64,000 bases of DNA from contig CAZERA010000004.1 of assembly GCA_964514565.1 (NCBI GenBank), positions 1 to 64,000 of the forward strand, in the 5' to 3' direction. The position numbers were made by a program. This DNA is from an uncultured Candidatus Peribacteria bacterium. Lineage in GTDB: Bacteria; Patescibacteriota; Gracilibacteria; RBG-16-42-10. This document shows, piece after piece, positions 40,701 through 46,700 of the stretch (its first letter is position 1; the number at the start of each line of letters is the position of its first letter).

Positions 40701-43700
40701 GATCTTAGTAATCTCATAGTTCGCACGACCTTCAGGTACTACTACATCCAGCTTTTCACCGACAGCTTTGCCTAGTGAAGCTTTTCCTACTGGGGACTCA
40801 TTAGAAATTCTACCAGCCAATGGATCTGCTTCAGTAGAACCTACGATCGTGTAGGTCTCATCTTGGTTTGATTGAATATTGTGGATTGTAATGGTATGTC
40901 CTACCTGTACAGTTTTGACATGCTTATTGGTGCCAGAAATGACCTTGGCATTTTTCACTTGTTGTTCGAGTACTACGATACGGCCCTCTACAGTTGCTTG
41001 TTCGTTGCGCGCTTCCTCGTATTCAGCGTTCTCAGATAAATCACCATAACTAATTGCTTCTTTGAGTCTCTGTGCTACTTCTTTACGGCGAGTAGTTTTG
41101 AGCTCGTTGAGTTCTTTTTTGAGCGCATCAAGACCATCTTGAGTGATTAATACTTCTTCCTCATGAGCAGCTGTCTGAGTCTTAGTAGGTTTTGCTACTT
41201 TTACTGGTTTCATGACCTTATTGGCTTTGATTGGAGCTGCTTTTTTGCTAGCGCTGCTTGATTTAACCATAAAAAATTTTAAGAAGGAAAATAGTATACT
41301 GGCCTACACCTGCAATTGATATCTTAGGATACTCTTGCTGTCAATGTCGAGTTTACTGGGTGAAGATTTGAGTGACATACATTTCATCTGGACTTTCACC
41401 AACGATAATCCCGATCCCTACATGAGTATAGGGTATGTAGGTTCCTAGAATATTGAAAGCATGTGAGTAGAGATAGTTGCCATCGTCCCCTTTTTCAAAC
41501 ATTTTATTGATAATGTCAGTGACGCGGTCTTCTGGAGTAGCATTGTCAAAGAAAGCATGAGCAATGTTTTGAGTAGCTTCACTGTAGCTAATGTCATATT
41601 TCTTACTTGCTAATGCAAACCATTGATCAAAAGTCTGACCATTGACGTTGCGGTGGGAGGTCCATGGTCGGCGTTTTTCTTGTTCGGTGAGGTTAGCATG
41701 GCTAGTCTCGTATTCTTTCTTTTGTTGTTTATCCAAGAAATGCCATTGGTCATAAAGCTCTTGGCTTTGGTTTCTAGCAATACCAGAAAGTTTTTGATCA
41801 ATTACCAGAGGAGCTTTTTTTTCAGTGGCCCGTTTCTCATTGATAGCAATTAGCATGCTTCTCTCTAGGTCAGTGATAGCAGGAAAAGTGGTGTCTTTGT
41901 CTTGGAGATAGTTGTCTAAAATCTTCACTGCCTCAGCGCGAGTGATTGGTGTATTGGGTAAAAATAAACCGTTGCTAGTCCCTTTGATATAGCCCAAAGC
42001 ACGAGCGGAATAAATATAAGGGGCTAATTCATGGTTGGGAGACACATCGAGAAATGCCTCGCCAATATTATAGTCTTTGATCTCATTGTTGCTTGCAACA
42101 ATAAAGATTTTCAAAAACTCGGCTCTACTGACTGACTTGGTAGGACGAAAAGTACGGTCACTATAACCTTTGACCATTTTTTTCTCGTAAGCATACTTAA
42201 TGAAAGGCAACAAAGTATCACTACTATCTACATCACCAAAAGGTACTGTCACTGATCCGCTTTGGGTGACAGGGCGATAGTTGCTGGTAGCCAAGGTGAT
42301 TATTTTGGTTGTTTCTGCTCGAGTAAGTGGACGGTCTGGTCCAAAACTACCATCACTATAGCCATTGACGATTTTTTTCTTTACCACATTTTGAATAGCA
42401 TCATAGGCCCAATATTGCTCATTGATGTCTCGGAAGATCACCTCCGGAGCACTAGTCACCGTACTAGTTGGTGTAGGGCTTGGTGTGCTGGTTGTTACAC
42501 TAGTTGGTGTGGGTGTAGCCGTAGTAGCAGCCATTGCTGTGAATGGTGTAAACAACAGCAAGCTAATCAGAAGAAAGCGACGTAGCATAATAAATGGACA
42601 AATTAAAAGATGATTTACTTAATCAAGTACGGTCAAGCTACATATTAGTTACTCTTACTTTGATCTGCAATCTCCTTGCTTAATTGGCCAAACTTTGGCA
42701 TTAATATACAGTGTATATCGCTATTACTAATAATAGCGTCTTCTCCTCTATTCTTTACTCCATACATTGTGGCTAAGAAAAAGCTTTTTTTCAGTCTACC
42801 TCGGGGCATGAGAGACATTTTACCTGCAGATCACAGTGTGGCTTCATATTTGAAAAAGATTATTCGGTATCGATGCCGTCAGGCTGGTATTCGGCGTATT
42901 AGTACACCAATATTTGAACGTACTGTGATTCTTGATAATCTTCCACCAGCACACTGGGGAGAAATAGTTCAGCTACAATATAAAAATGGTGAACAAAATA
43001 ATTTGCTTCTACGCAAAAACTTTTTGTTAAGCATTCTGCGTACATATATCACACACAAGATGTATGAAGGTCCTCAACCTGTTGAGCTATATTCACTTGA
43101 TATGTGCTTCCGCTCAGTTAAAAATTGGGGCGATAGTGATCAACCAGTGTTGCAACAGTTTTTAGGTTTTGATTTGCAAGTATTGGGTGAAAATGATCCT
43201 GTTTTGGATGCTCAAGTTATTAAACTTTGGTATACAATTTGTACTGATATTGGTTTAGAACAATTTATTTCTATTCGTTTGGCTAAAATCGGTACAGTTG
43301 CTTCTCGTGAGCAGTTTTTAGTAGATTTTGCGCATTATTATAGTGGCAAAGAGAGATCGCTCTGTCCTAATTGTGCCAAGGCTTTGGCTACTGATCCCCT
43401 CCAACTGCTTACTTGTCAGGAAGAAGACTGTCAGATTTTGTTGAAGTTAGCTCCCAAGTTGGAAACCTATTTGGATGCTGAGACCAAGGTGTTTTATCAA
43501 AACCTTGAAGAGTATCTACATATTTTGAAAGTGCCATTCGTCTGGCAAGAGTATTTGTATCCTGAAGATATGAATATCTATGAGCCGCTCTATGGTGAGA
43601 TTTTCTTAGATGATAAAAAACTGGGTACTATTCATCATTTCTCAGAGCTTTTGACTGATGAGAGTTTCCCTGGGGTCTCTGGTCGTTCACTTTTTGTCAA

Positions 43701-46700
43701 TTTGGAAGAAGTGATCATGTCTATGCAGAAACATGATGTGTTTGTGCCTTACAAAGATAATATCCATGTATATATAGCTCAGCTCGGTGTAGATGCCAAG
43801 AAATACGGCTTAGAATTGCTTTATAGTCTTCGTCAAAAAGGCATCAAGGCTATTGCCAGTATGGGCAAAGGTAGTATGCAAGAACAAGTGGATACTGCTT
43901 ATAAATTCCGCATTCCTTATGCACTTCTAGTGGGACGGATGGAAGTGAATGAGAATATTGTGATTGTGCGTGATATGACTACTGGTAAGCGGGAGACTGT
44001 GCCCAGAGATGAGATTGCTACCTTCTTGCTCAACAAAATCCCAGAATGTGAATTGGATCAAGTAAGCTACGACAAGATGACTCGTAGTCACTATGAGGCT
44101 AAGCAAAAAGAAATTTAAGGTTTTATTGGTTTTAGTAAGCTACTAATAGTAGGAATAGGTGTGGGTAAAGTATCTCTGATTAAGCGAAAAGGATCACAGG
44201 ACTGATGACTGAGGTTTTCTGTCCTACCGATCCAAAAGCTGGTGATACTAAAGATGAGACTGATCAGTAGAGCCAAGCCGTGGTAAAAGTAATATTTTCT
44301 TTTTTTAGCAAGTTGTGACATTGGTTGTGATTGAGTAGACAGCATTGTAGTGTTATTTCCAGAAAAAAGTCTGAAATTTTCATGTTTTACATCTTATGTA
44401 TCTTTTCTATCTAGGTAATAATTTGGAGCTTTCTCGTTGGGAATTGCGTAATCTCCTACCAGTGACGCCTGCGGGAGAATCAACCTACGGTATTTCTTAT
44501 GCTGATGAAGCTGTTCAACCATTTGATCTACCGACAATTCAAAAGCGAGCTGGTGGTTTGCGTGAAATTATTCACCATACTGACCAGTCTTTTGCAGAGT
44601 GGGAAAAAGCAATTATGAGTTTGCGTGATGAGTGGATTGGTGGCGAAAAAGAAATCACTTTGCAAGCGCCAAGTTGTGATGAGAAGCAACGTGAACATAT
44701 GCTACTAGCCTTGAAGCGATATTGGCATGAACGTACTGGTAAATCTTTGCGTTTCCGACTCAATAAAACCTATTTGGTAGGTAATGGTGGCAATGTATTG
44801 TGGTGGTTACCTGTTCCAGATCAAGCTGGTCAATTTTGGTTGGGCCATAGCATTACCCAACAAACTATTAGTGCCTATGCCCAGAGAGATTATGATAAGC
44901 CAGCTCGCTCGATGCAGCGAGGAATGCTACCTCCCAAACTCGCTCAGATTATGATCAATGGTGCTGGCATTGGATCTGACCAAGTCCTATGGGATCCATT
45001 TTGTGGTACTGGTACTGTGTTGGTAGAGGCTGCTCTGATGAACATTCCCTCGATCGGTAGTGACAATGAAACTGCCGCCATTCGAGAGACTCAGAACAAT
45101 ATCGCTAGTGTATTGGATTTTGATCACCAAAAGTTTATTCAACAGTTGTGGCAACAAAATATTATGCAGACCTGGCATCTGCCCTGTGATGATGAGAATC
45201 TAGTAATTGTGGCTGAAGGCTACCTTGGTCCTATTCAAAATAAAGCGATGACCGTGGGGGACGGATTGCGTGCTTTTTGGCAAAAAGTAGAACCACTCTA
45301 CCAAAAGTTTTTTACTGAGCTAGCTAGGAGTAAAATTAAAAAGATGGTTTTGGCTACACCAATTGTTTTAATGGCTGAAAATAATTCACGTTTGGCTAAA
45401 AGAAGCTGGGATATTCTGCTCAAACAAGGCTGGGAAATAAGCTTTAGTGCTGATTATACTCGTTCGAATCAATTTATTGGTCGGCATATCGCTTGCTTGC
45501 AAAGAAACTAATGCTATAATCCCCTCGCAATATTTAAGGATAATTTACTATGTCAACGAAAAAAGCTGGTGGTACGACGGATAACGGCCGTGATTCGAAC
45601 TCGAAACGTCGTGGTGTGAAACTTTTTGCGGGTCAGACAACTCGTGCTGGGGGTATTATTGTACGTCAAAAAGGTAGCAAATATTTTGCTGGTACAAATG
45701 TCGGTCAAGGAAAAGACTTTACTTTGTTTGCTTTGATTGATGGTGTAGTTTCTTTTCAACAAAAGCGTCGCAAACGTTTTGATGGCAATATTTATGCTCG
45801 CACATTTGTTAATATTTCTCCGGTTGTTTAGTAGGAGCAAGATCAAGTACCTTGGTGAGATAGTTGCCTAGTAAATATTGAGAGATCAAATAAGTAGCGG
45901 TAGCAAAGATTAGTACAAAACTAATTTTGCCCGCTACTTTTAGTACACTATCTAGCGGATCAAATATGAGTGCAGAAGTGAATTTGCTGGCTTGGGCTAC
46001 GATCGTAGTAATGATCGTGGCGATAATGGTTTTGGTAATAAAAGTCCAGTTGGCATACTGCCAAAGCGGTAAGTTGTGCTTCTTTGCTAAACGGTAAAGT
46101 TGCATTGAGAGTTCAAAGATACTGGCGATACTAAATGACAAACCAAGCATAATCACTGAACCATGCAAAACAAATACTAGAATCACACTACCAATGATAT
46201 TGATCACGATACTATAGAGTGAAATCAATAATGGATCTCGGGTGTTTTTATAAGCATAGAACGTGCGGGTGATGATGGGCTGGATGCTCTCGCTAATGAA
46301 GCTAAGAGCAAACAATCCTAGTGTGTCGGCAGTAGTAATAGTATCAGTCCAATTGAATCTGCCACTACCAAAAAGCAGTCGCACAATCTCAGTGCGCAAA
46401 AGAATCGTGACTAAAGTGACCGGCAACAGAATATAAAGCATCTTTTCGATTTTTCGGTTCACAAATGAACCCAATTCTTGATGCTTCTGGTCACTCACGA
46501 GCTCACTAATGAAAGGAAAACTGGCTACTGCTACTGATACCCCGATAATGCCCAATGGGAGGCTTTGAATATTTTGAGCTAGATTGAGAATAGTGATGCT
46601 ACCAGCTACAAGCATTGAAGCTAGTGTTGTATCTACTAGAATATTGATACGGCCGACTGTCATTGAAAGAATACGAGGAAAACTGCTCTTTACCATCGCC

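Follow-up and report, generated by a model that had tools for sequence, protein, structure and literature searches.

A conserved histidyl-tRNA synthetase homologue with replaced catalytic motifs in a Candidatus Peribacteria bacterium: a possible stand-alone tRNA-His binder

Among the genes in a 64,000-nucleotide stretch of DNA from an uncultured Candidatus Peribacteria bacterium (hereafter, the window) is one whose product, P0001, resembles a histidyl-tRNA synthetase (HisRS) of type 1 throughout its length, while the residues typical of the active site are replaced. What such a protein might do, and why it is kept, is the question addressed here. The reading frame (Table 1) contains no in-frame TGA, so that it reads identically under translation tables 11 and 25, and was judged real. 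A -35/-10 layout like the one in Table 1 precedes all 8 orthologues of the gene; the element in the window was not listed by a consensus promoter scan. The only Pfam family to pass on P0001 is HGTP_anticodon (PF03129; 48.4 bits versus a cut-off of 21). Both tRNA-synt_His (PF13393; 19.2 versus 25) and the NCBIfam hisS model (TIGR00442; 159.3 bits versus 286.75) fall below their cut-offs. Nine protein clusters are related to P0001 at 55-94% identity, the next ones at 40% or less; homologues, in a search not aimed at longer forms, measure 432-466 aa, and P0001 is a stand-alone protein with no further Pfam domain. Its closest solved relative is Staphylococcus aureus HisRS (1qe0; E = 4.8e-43, residues 9-419). 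The best Foldseek matches of its AF2 model (pLDDT 92.4, pTM 0.84) are bacterial HisRS structures, namely 1qe0, 4rdx (a tRNA complex) and 4e51, with TM values of 0.74-0.89. As modelled, P0001 retains the fold of HisRS, including the class IIa anticodon-binding domain at its C terminus. A preliminary description of the locus had placed the protein in the zinc-ribbon type-1 lineage of Gracilibacteria; this is supported, its identity to that subgroup being 33-40%.

Table 1. Position of the gene, its upstream element and the parts of P0001 within the window. Conserved positions are those at least 80% conserved among intact copies.
Feature	Position	Strand	Remarks
Promoter-like element (putative)	42676..42704	+	TTGC-type -35 hexamer, 17-nt spacer, CAT-type -10 hexamer; read by eye
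Type-1 HisRS-like coding sequence, P0001 (probably catalytically dead homologue)	42769..44118	+	449 aa; GTG start; TAA stop 44116-44118
Residues 1-60, N-terminal segment with motif 1 (canonical class II dimer interface)	42769..42948	+	0.77 of 19 conserved positions kept
Residues 61-180, former catalytic core, first half	42949..43308	+	Histidine loop and motif 2 replaced; 0.52 of 44 conserved positions kept
Residues 181-255, helical insertion domain, four-Cys zinc ribbon	43309..43533	+	C199, C202, C216, C221; 0.72 of 22 conserved positions kept
Residues 256-325, former core, second half (core-b)	43534..43743	+	HisA box and motif 3 replaced; 0.23 of 34 conserved positions kept
Residues 326-425, class IIa anticodon-binding domain	43744..44043	+	PF03129, 48.4 bits; 0.85 of 26 conserved positions kept
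Residues 426-449, C-terminal tail, predicted helix 436-448	44044..44115	+	AF2 model, lower pLDDT 61-77

Replacements were scored against 29 intact copies, at positions 93-100% conserved among them. The alignments confirm the earlier claim that motifs 2 and 3 and the HisA box are replaced, and add the histidine loop to the list. The changes are P83K, E84N and T86L in the Pro-Glu-Gly-Thr histidine loop; replacement of loop 123-129 in motif 2; Q133G; R265P, G266E, D269N and Y270I in the HisA box (local consensus Arg-Gly-Leu-Asp-Tyr-Tyr); and G287T, G288I, G289H and R290H in motif 3. Core-b carries two further substitutions, G307S and R314E. The motif-2 arginine, Arg115, is kept solely in P0001's genus, the family's other two genera having H or A instead, and position 217 has Gln in place of the Lys equivalent to Thermus thermophilus K209. 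Substrate and catalytic residues are replaced in every family member. This pattern supports the loss of residues required for chemistry on histidine and ATP and suggests that P0001 is inactive as a synthetase. In the predicted dimer interface lie residues 7-20 and 42-54, and an L429-D430 pair in the tail is at least 90% conserved across the alignment.

The genome encodes a second, eukaryote/archaeon-like (type-2) HisRS at C1:325689-326993. It scores 369.4 bits, over the cut-off, has all residues invariant among 86 type-2 homologues and lies about 1 kb from the sole tRNA-His gene, which specifies a GUG anticodon with encoded G-1, C73 and CCA. This second enzyme is intact, as had been proposed, and all 8 genomes of P0001's family encode it. 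The designation of P0001's own type as "ancestral", on the other hand, could not be established: type-2 HisRS is widespread in the class too, and its next relatives include other Patescibacteria, so that either type, or both, could be old.

Purifying selection on the P0001 gene is strong. The gene occurs, with conserved synteny, in all seven sampled relatives from the family, one copy (that of G006) being broken; the frame is open in 7 of the 8 family genomes, and synonymous sites are saturated. Comparison of the genome studied here (G000) with G002 gives dN 0.100, dS 1.37 and dN/dS 0.074, that with G003 a dN/dS of 0.091, and that with G001 pN 0.088 and a saturated pS of 0.75. Overall, dN/dS is about 0.07-0.09. 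By part of the protein, dN/dS is 0.036-0.089 for residues 1-60 and 0.008-0.080 for the anticodon-binding domain; core-b remains under constraint in the family (dN 0.08, dN/dS 0.075). In dN, the gene matches the type-2 HisRS gene (0.083) and the SLH/CAP neighbour (0.090), whereas the neighbouring methyltransferase has twice its value (0.208).

These values bear on the proposals that the gene is a functionless, decaying remnant or, conversely, that it encodes an ordinary active HisRS with unusual motifs, a pair of readings that we consider highly improbable. Decay would account for the frameshifted, stop-containing G006 copy and for family f13, which appears to have type-2 only, type-1 being missing. 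It fits poorly with a frame that has stayed open in seven of eight genomes despite synonymous saturation, at a dN/dS of at most about 0.09. Moreover, the two halves of the G006 copy (pN/pS 0.22-0.25) are constrained like the type-2 gene (0.26), which argues that the break is recent or an assembly error. Ordinary activity is hard to reconcile with the replacement of essentially all residue classes for histidine, ATP and the acceptor end. Jointly, the f13 genomes and the G006 break suggest that the function is dispensable in some backgrounds.

A HisRS paralogue devoid of catalytic residues could also be HisZ, the regulatory subunit of ATP phosphoribosyltransferase; HisZ answers to that same definition, and two of the nine related clusters (P0005 and P0009) are named "ATP phosphoribosyltransferase regulatory subunit" at NCBI. 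Yet this identity is scarcely credible. The hisZ model (TIGR00443) reaches 38.8 bits on P0001 versus a cut-off of 271.65, over residues 15-177 only. A search for hisG (TIGR00070) gave a hit in 14 of 14 controls but in 0 of 9 genomes from the order, of which 6 are at least 90% complete. The best-conserved part of the protein, the anticodon-binding domain, would also be left unexplained by a HisZ role. On the hisG and hisZ results we rule out HisZ, as the preliminary description had done.

That description confined the phenomenon to one order-level clade. The observation itself was real but its scope too narrow, as the same decay of type 1 is seen in at least 8 families of the class. Degenerate copies make up 33 of the 86 type-1 copies surveyed, 52 of the 86 having been chosen because their genomes have at least two hisS matches. 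All 33 genomes with a degenerate type-1 copy contain a type-2-like match, which is full-length save in three of them: contig ends truncate it in G002 and G003, and in G043 it starts at query residue 74. No degenerate copy was found in the 17 type-1-only genomes examined. In an unselected sample of 41 genomes, 14 of 16 type-1 copies found beside type-2 are degenerate, versus 0 of 18 without type-2. The type-1 gene tree implies at least five changes of state, that is, at least five separate losses. Degenerate f24 and intact f4 are placed in one order, and joining them gives a higher likelihood (p-AU 0.776), which points to a further independent loss.

P0001's family (f1) retains 0.85 of conserved positions in the anticodon-binding domain versus 0.23 in core-b, and the other degenerate families 0.65-0.99 versus 0.33-0.59. 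The anticodon-binding domain is thus the best-kept part in most degenerate lineages, the N-terminal part being kept slightly better in two families (f23 and the single degenerate f10 copy). No neighbour gene conserved across the degenerate families, which might hint at a partner, was found; synteny with the neighbouring UPF0020 RNA methyltransferase gene is confined to P0001's family, and that gene forms a separate transcription unit.

In the T. thermophilus HisRS-tRNA structure, base-specific anticodon contacts are described for E388, K397 and Q404, and K209 touches the C72 phosphate of the tRNA (PMC4357726). Mapped by alignment, the three anticodon contacts correspond to E392, R401 and position 408 of P0001. 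E392 and R401 are present in P0001 and in all 33 degenerate copies. Position 408, which corresponds to the U35 contact, is Arg in P0001's family (Leu in G002) and Gln in all other copies, including every other degenerate family. Hence, two of the three base-specific contacts are kept in P0001 and three of three in the other degenerate families. The change at position 408 raises the possibility that RNA specificity differs in P0001's family. Contacts on the acceptor side, namely the motif-2 loop and the Lys equivalent to K209, are gone in P0001. Conservation of the anticodon-binding domain and of two of the three mapped contacts suggests that P0001 may bind tRNA-His; according to the same structural work, anticodon contacts add just modestly to HisRS activity (PMC4357726).

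The domain might instead read an anticodon-like GUG element in a messenger, possibly in P0001's own start region, making the protein a translational regulator. The yeast enzyme offers a precedent, for it reportedly binds a mimic of the anticodon within its own mRNA (PMC6542539), and the GTG start codon of all 8 orthologues lies in the context Y-GTG-GC, like anticodon-loop positions 33-37 of the genome's tRNA-His. The resemblance, however, extends over just five bases and is partly due to the Ala second codon; there is no stem around the GUG element, and the sole 5' UTR hairpin is limited to three close genomes and has a loop that is not anticodon-like. We regard this reading as decidedly improbable.

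Constraint on the replaced core could mean a new ligand site instead of mere scaffolding. On this alternative, the remodelled pocket would bind a new small ligand or run another reaction, P0001 being a neo-enzyme or a sensor. Within the family, the replaced segments are indeed conserved (His at 290 and Ser307, each in 7 of 7, and the stretch after the former HisA box), as is reflected in the core-b dN/dS. But neither of the two class II ATP-binding arginines is kept, that of motif 2 varying between R, H and A among the three genera, that of motif 3 having become His. Furthermore, the replacements differ from one degenerate family to the next and leave no new motif in common, a pattern that relaxed chemistry fits better than a shared new activity. 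Overall, this alternative appears distinctly unlikely.

Somewhat different is the idea that the degenerate chain serves as a regulatory or scaffolding subunit, pairing at the class II dimer interface with type-2 HisRS and modulating charging or tRNA capture. Such an arrangement would be like that of the SerRS paralogue SLIMP, which pairs with SerRS2. The predicted complex of P0001 with the type-2 enzyme (P0122) scores 0.79 versus 0.00 for the best of three controls; among solved complexes 116 of 157 attain this mark, among mismatched pairs 2 of 215. At least 80% of contacts are shared between the runs, with a partner pLDDT of at least 78, the predicted interface corresponds to the canonical one (residues 7-20, 42-54 and 91-96), and degenerate copies always co-occur with type-2. 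Nonetheless, HisRS homodimers are among the solved structures, and the pass may just mirror likeness to them. The two types are also only weakly alike in sequence (f1 type-1 copies score at most about 40 bits with a type-2 query), and f13 manages with type-2 alone. We consider such pairing unlikely.

The reading that we prefer, with confidence evenly balanced for and against, is that P0001 is a pseudo-synthetase: a non-catalytic dimer that still binds the anticodon arm of tRNA-His, while type-2 HisRS does the charging. A full-length type-1 HisRS would no longer bind histidine, ATP or the tRNA acceptor end, and would have retained the dimer interface of class II enzymes along with an anticodon-binding domain that is essentially intact. 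The intact type-2 enzyme would histidylate the single tRNA-His (GUG), and the degenerate copy, as a dimer, would dock through its C-terminal domain on the GUG anticodon loop. It would then probably act as a tRNA-His-specific binder, be it a buffer, a chaperone, an adaptor or a regulator. The retention of similar copies in many related tiny bacteria makes a second job probable. By this account, type 1 would have had a second function independent of aminoacylation, the sole one left after type 2 took over charging. Arguing against the explanation, the genome encodes RelA/SpoT, so that a sensor of uncharged tRNA is not evidently lacking. Also counting against it are the change at position 408, the modest share of anticodon contacts in HisRS activity, the dispensability suggested by f13 and G006, the constraint on the replaced core, the lack of a conserved neighbour across degenerate families and the possible pairing with type-2 HisRS. 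The general form of the proposal is more doubtful, and we put it forward tentatively: type-1 HisRS of Gracilibacteria would have a hidden second function requiring the dimer and the anticodon-binding domain only, exposed independently at least five times where type 2 took over charging, and yielding stand-alone readers of tRNA-His. No earlier account of such a protein was found in the literature searched. If the proposal is true, such a reader would be a bacterial counterpart of the HisRS-like module of Gcn2, for example a tRNA-His sensor, a sequestering factor or a targeting adaptor.

Compared with known systems, P0001 shares length, domain order, fold, dimer-interface segment and anticodon-binding domain with bacterial type-1 HisRS (S. 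aureus 1qe0, T. thermophilus 4rdx), and belongs to the zinc-ribbon subgroup common in Gracilibacteria. It departs from these enzymes in having all four motifs replaced, the acceptor-stem Lys lost and a hisS score below cut-off. Like HisZ, listed as the only HisRS paralogue in a table of a 2022 review (PMC9437257), it is a bacterial HisRS paralogue without aminoacylation residues; unlike HisZ, it has no HisG partner in the nine genomes of the order, has a conserved anticodon-binding domain and descends, in the gene tree, from inside the local type-1 lineage. The HisRS-like module of Gcn2 is described as having given up catalysis while keeping catalytic-like and anticodon-binding-like parts, and as binding tRNA (PMC11363354). 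P0001 is likewise a full HisRS-like unit devoid, it would seem, of catalysis, with tRNA binding suggested by its sequence. The Gcn2 module, however, is one domain of a multi-domain eukaryotic kinase, whereas P0001 is bacterial, stands alone at 449 aa with no fusion to a kinase (no other Pfam domain) and is of independent origin. Finally, DALRD3, an anticodon-binding protein that derives from ArgRS and directs tRNA-Arg to a methyltransferase (PMC7237682), and SLIMP, an inactive SerRS paralogue (PMC9437257), are described as synthetase derivatives that still recognise tRNA or a partner and work without charging, as we propose for P0001; both are eukaryotic and stem from other synthetase families.

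P0001 is an open frame that, like all the large ORFs neighbouring it, contains no TGA codon; it therefore reads identically under tables 11 and 25, and the source genome (G000) apparently uses the standard code. (Several HisRS copies of both the bacterial type, type-1, and the eukaryote/archaeon-like type, type-2, carry many TGA codons in code-25 lineages, as expected.) The only Pfam model to pass on P0001 is the class IIa anticodon-binding domain PF03129 (residues 334-422, 48.4 bits), tRNA-synt_His scoring 19.2, below its cut-off of 25. The NCBIfam hisS profile aligns over positions 2-405 of 406 but reaches just 159.3 bits, its cut-off being 286.75. 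Among solved proteins, HisRS of S. aureus comes closest (1qe0, E = 4.8e-43); an AlphaFold2 model built with 110 homologues reaches a mean pLDDT of 92.4 and a pTM of 0.84, and Foldseek matches that model best to chains of bacterial HisRS, among them the one in the tRNA complex 4rdx (TM 0.74-0.89). These family and structure matches indicate that P0001 is a complete, well-folded HisRS homologue.

Set against 29 intact type-1 sequences of its class, in which the positions listed here are 93-100% conserved, P0001 has replacements throughout the active site. They affect the histidine loop (P83K, E84N, T86L), the motif-2 loop (positions 123-129 replaced) and the residue Q133G after motif 2, the HisA box (R265P, G266E, D269N, Y270I), motif 3 (G287T, G288I, G289H, R290H) and the strand following it (G307S, R314E). 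Motif-2 Arg115 is present in P0001's genus; the family's other two genera have His or Ala there, so that the site appears to be free of family-wide constraint. Alignment to solved relatives places a Gln in P0001 at the site of T. thermophilus Lys209 (K209), a residue described as touching the C72 phosphate of the tRNA (PMC4357726). Judged from these motifs, a dead state of P0001 is well supported, and the protein would have lost aminoacylation.

The preliminary description had presented P0001 as a dead HisRS conserved in nine related protein clusters and accompanied by a second HisRS gene in family relatives, all of which is upheld by the present data. A search of 5.8 billion proteins returned nine clusters 55-94% identical to P0001, followed by a drop to 40% or less; in a 50%-identity library the clade is a single representative. 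All seven sampled genomes of the same family carry the dead copy (56-88% identity), and all seven carry the type-2 gene, truncated at contig ends in two. Gene order is kept family-wide: SLH/CAP gene, dead HisRS, a 76-aa gene, UPF0020 methyltransferase, then L27.

Selection was gauged by the Nei-Gojobori method, with dS near saturation, so that the ratios are rough upper-range estimates. Between G000 and its relative G002 the dead copy has dN 0.100 and dS 1.37 (ratio 0.074). The ratio is 0.091 for G000-G003, and the G000-G001 comparison is saturated (pN 0.088, pS 0.75). Among the genes used for comparison, dN is 0.083 in the type-2 gene (same genome pair) and 0.090 in the SLH/CAP gene. Within the dead copy dN/dS is 0.008-0.080 in the anticodon-binding domain, 0.036-0.089 in the N-terminal 60 residues and 0.04-0.09 in the former core where dS is computable. 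Strong selection on the dead copy is thus well supported. In G006 a frameshift with stops, located past the zinc ribbon, breaks the copy in two; compared with G004, the two pieces have pN/pS of 0.22-0.25, on a par with the 0.26 of the type-2 gene, indicating that the break is recent or an assembly error. That P0001 is a pseudogene, or else an ordinary active HisRS, is extremely improbable, both readings being contradicted by the active-site replacements together with family-wide retention and selection.

Features of the P0001 region and of related loci (positions without a contig name are window positions; the window corresponds to C4:1-64000)
Feature	Position	Strand	Description
SLH/CAP gene	41353-42588		divergent upstream neighbour; 411 aa, three S-layer-homology repeats and CAP domain
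Promoter-like element	42676-42704		TTGC-type -35, 17-nt spacer, CAT-type -10
Hairpin	42729-42748		perfect 8-bp stem, 4-nt loop, presumed 5' UTR
Start context	42766-42775		Y-GTG-GC (other loci: L007-L012, L018)
P0001, dead type-1 HisRS	42769-44118	+	449 codons, GTG start
UPF0020/RMKL-like RNA methyltransferase	44396-45511		371 aa, two genes downstream of P0001
Type-2 HisRS (P0122)	G000 C1:325689-326993		369.4 bits
tRNA-His, sole gene	G000 C1:324543-324619		outside window; about 1.1 kb from type-2 hisS
tRNA-Ser(GGA) calls	G000 C1:479357-479870		outside window; three in tandem within 520 bases
Split dead copy (L018)	G006 C17:12957-14262		frameshift with stops
Type-2 HisRS match	G064 C2:284107-285384		one in-frame TAG

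Across the dead families, conserved gene neighbourhood pointed to no partner. The SLH/CAP gene lies next to the dead copy throughout the family and also in G008; synteny with the methyltransferase, which evolves at about twice its neighbours' rate (dN 0.208), and with the 76-aa gene is confined to this family. When the 9-kb surroundings of 14 type-1 loci, drawn from 11 families, were compared, the only cluster common to most was HisRS itself, other neighbours being shared almost only between same-family genomes. A promoter-like element is seen upstream of 8/8 orthologues; it was not among the two promoter-like sites found by a consensus scan (5.9 expected), and the promoter/terminator scan found no terminators. 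The G000 leader has a z-score of -2.9. In G001 and G002 a hairpin occupies the place of the G000 one, its two arms both altered in sequence; G003 lacks a hairpin at this site. The GTG start occurs in the Y-GTG-GC context in all eight dead-HisRS orthologues; the preceding base is T in five, giving TGTGG, as in positions 33-37 of the G000 tRNA-His anticodon loop. This start could reflect control of expression through a weak start, a site for self-recognition, or chance. It also speaks, though weakly, for P0001 being an mRNA-binding regulator, a role that has a parallel in the mRNA binding reported for yeast HisRS (PMC6542539); we regard this reading of P0001 as very unlikely.

Charging of tRNA-His in G000 (1.12 Mb, 7 contigs, 92.7% complete) can be assigned a candidate enzyme in P0122. 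As claimed earlier, this second HisRS keeps all its motifs: every residue that does not vary across 86 type-2 homologues is present, the arginines of motif 2, the HisA box and motif 3 among them, and of the solved proteins 6nhi is the closest to it (5.2e-80), with human HisRS next. ARAGORN finds 41 tRNA genes, with a single tRNA-His (GUG) that encodes G-1, C73 and CCA; two of the tandem tRNA-Ser(GGA) calls are unusual, at 85 nt with the anticodon at position 30. With these elements encoded, and with RelA/SpoT, Tgt and bacterial RNase P RNA present, a missing stringent-response or processing factor was rejected as an explanation. Linkage of tRNA-His to the type-2 gene is found at 5/6 family loci and in G008 (loci L026-L028, L030, L031, L033), and is absent in G020, G025 and G039. 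The closest relatives of P0122 are Abawacabacteria sequences (62-97% identity), then Gracilibacteria and Peregrinibacteria proteins (42-47%), then other Patescibacteria, Thermomicrobiales and others (38-43%). In the class type-1 outnumbers type-2, and both types may be old there, different lineages retaining different ones. The exclusion of a HisZ role, already proposed for P0001, is confirmed and well supported: the hisZ profile scores 38.8 bits against a cut-off of 271.65, and hisG (TIGR00070) turned up in 0/9 genomes from the order (6 of them at least 90% complete), whereas all 14 control genomes are positive.

The preliminary description was right in placing the dead copy in related proteins; its scope proved too narrow, as degenerate type-1 copies recur class-wide. 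The hisS HMM matched in 246 of 251 class genomes, about 74 of which (counted from the table) have two or more matches. Type-1 copies were taken from 34 of the 41 genomes sampled as relatives, and 52 more from genomes with at least two matches, a set selected for two-copy genomes and hence biased. The same elements are lost in 33 of these 86 copies: 7/7 in P0001's family (f1), 6/6 in f24, 3/3 in f5, 12/13 in f23, 1/25 in f10 and the one copy each from f2, f19, f21 and f26. The replacements differ family by family. Their conservation within P0001's family would suit a remodelled pocket serving as a new ligand site, a reading made quite unlikely by the absence of the ATP-binding arginines and of any new motif common to the dead families.

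All 33 genomes with a degenerate type-1 copy have a type-2-like match (scored by match; motif checks covered the copy of G000 and 85 database homologues). This match spans the full length in all but G002 and G003, where contigs end, and G043, where it starts from query residue 74. In the unselected 41-genome sample, 14 of the 16 type-1 copies standing beside a type-2 are degenerate, G020 and G039 being the exceptions, as against 0/18 of those without a clear type-2. One of these 18, in G034, has f10 variant motifs together with a weak, split type-2-like match below the search threshold. Three sampled genomes gave no type-1 match, G016 (f10) and both G019 and G036 (f13); across its genomes, f13 appears to have type-2 alone. 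Both types are apparently intact in f14, in parts of f9, f12, f18, f20 and f28, and in G230. The f10 variant type-1 copies (e.g. L052, L061, L075) have Pro after the HisA Arg, an altered motif-2 loop and no zinc ribbon, motif 3 being intact, and the f10 genomes G057 and G111 carry an additional full-length type-2-like copy.

A maximum-likelihood tree of the 86 copies calls for at least five changes of state. The f1 stem measures 0.86 substitutions per site and terminal branches 0.02-0.36, which is the pattern of a burst of change followed by constraint. A cluster of f1, f2, f5, f19 and f24 (18 rows, SH-aLRT 89) might suggest a single origin of all dead copies, which we rejected: long branches meet there, and constraining f24 with f4 raises the log-likelihood by 34.9 (p-AU 0.776). 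Since f24 (dead; type-2 in 7/7 genomes) and f4 (intact; type-2 in 0/2) are also placed in one order, the losses in f24 and in f1/f2 were probably separate events.

Retention in the dead copies was expressed as the fraction still kept of those positions whose conservation among intact type-1 copies is 80% or more. In f1 this is 0.77 for the N-terminal/motif 1 region (0.68-0.89 in the other dead families), 0.52 for core-a (0.43-0.66), 0.72 for the insertion domain (0.50-0.80), 0.23 for core-b (0.33-0.59) and 0.85 for the anticodon-binding domain (0.65-0.99). The T. thermophilus HisRS-tRNA structure is reported to show three base-specific anticodon contacts, E388-G34, K397-G36 and Q404-U35 (PMC4357726). 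The first two (E392 and R401 in P0001) are retained in all dead copies; the Q404 site is Gln in all intact copies and in all dead families but f1, which has Arg (Leu in G002). By alignment, the putative dimer interface and anticodon reader are conserved in the dead copies, and the chemistry and acceptor-end grip are lost. Because of this pattern, we propose that P0001 is a non-catalytic dimer that would still dock on the anticodon loop of tRNA-His, a model to which we give an even chance of being right. Binding of tRNA-His itself would follow by the same reasoning. Dimerization might instead involve the type-2 enzyme. The predicted P0122-P0001 complex scored 0.79, as against 0.00 for the best of three controls. 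Of 157 solved complexes 116 attain that mark, as do 2 of 215 mismatched pairs; the runs share at least 80% of contacts, partner pLDDT is at least 78, and in the model the P0001 interface segment still looks competent. The prediction, however, uses the canonical interface of HisRS dimers, and since homodimeric HisRS structures have been solved, the pass may show only likeness to them; we consider such a heterodimer unlikely.

For genomes of about 1 Mb, a 1.35 kb "dead" gene that is strongly maintained by selection carries a cost; its retention, repeated in separate lineages, argues for a real function tied to tRNA-His. Genomes with type-1 only, with both types intact, with type-2 plus a dead type-1 and with type-2 only form a natural series within the class, which makes synthetase replacement and the purpose of the old copy directly testable. 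Annotation pipelines name the dead copies HisZ or HisS, and neither name holds.

A full-text literature search returned no account, for bacteria or the candidate phyla radiation, of a dead HisRS that stands alone and has kept its anticodon-binding domain conserved. HisZ is the sole HisRS paralogue in the table of a 2022 review (PMC9437257) and the only distant one mentioned in the excerpted text of a survey of >2,500 prokaryotic genomes (PMC5388404). Synthetase-derived pseudo-enzymes known from such sources include HisZ, SLIMP (PMC9437257), the HisRS-like module of Gcn2 (PMC11363354) and DALRD3 (PMC7237682). P0001 is a stand-alone bacterial HisRS that appears to have lost its chemistry and to have kept a near-perfect anticodon-binding domain.
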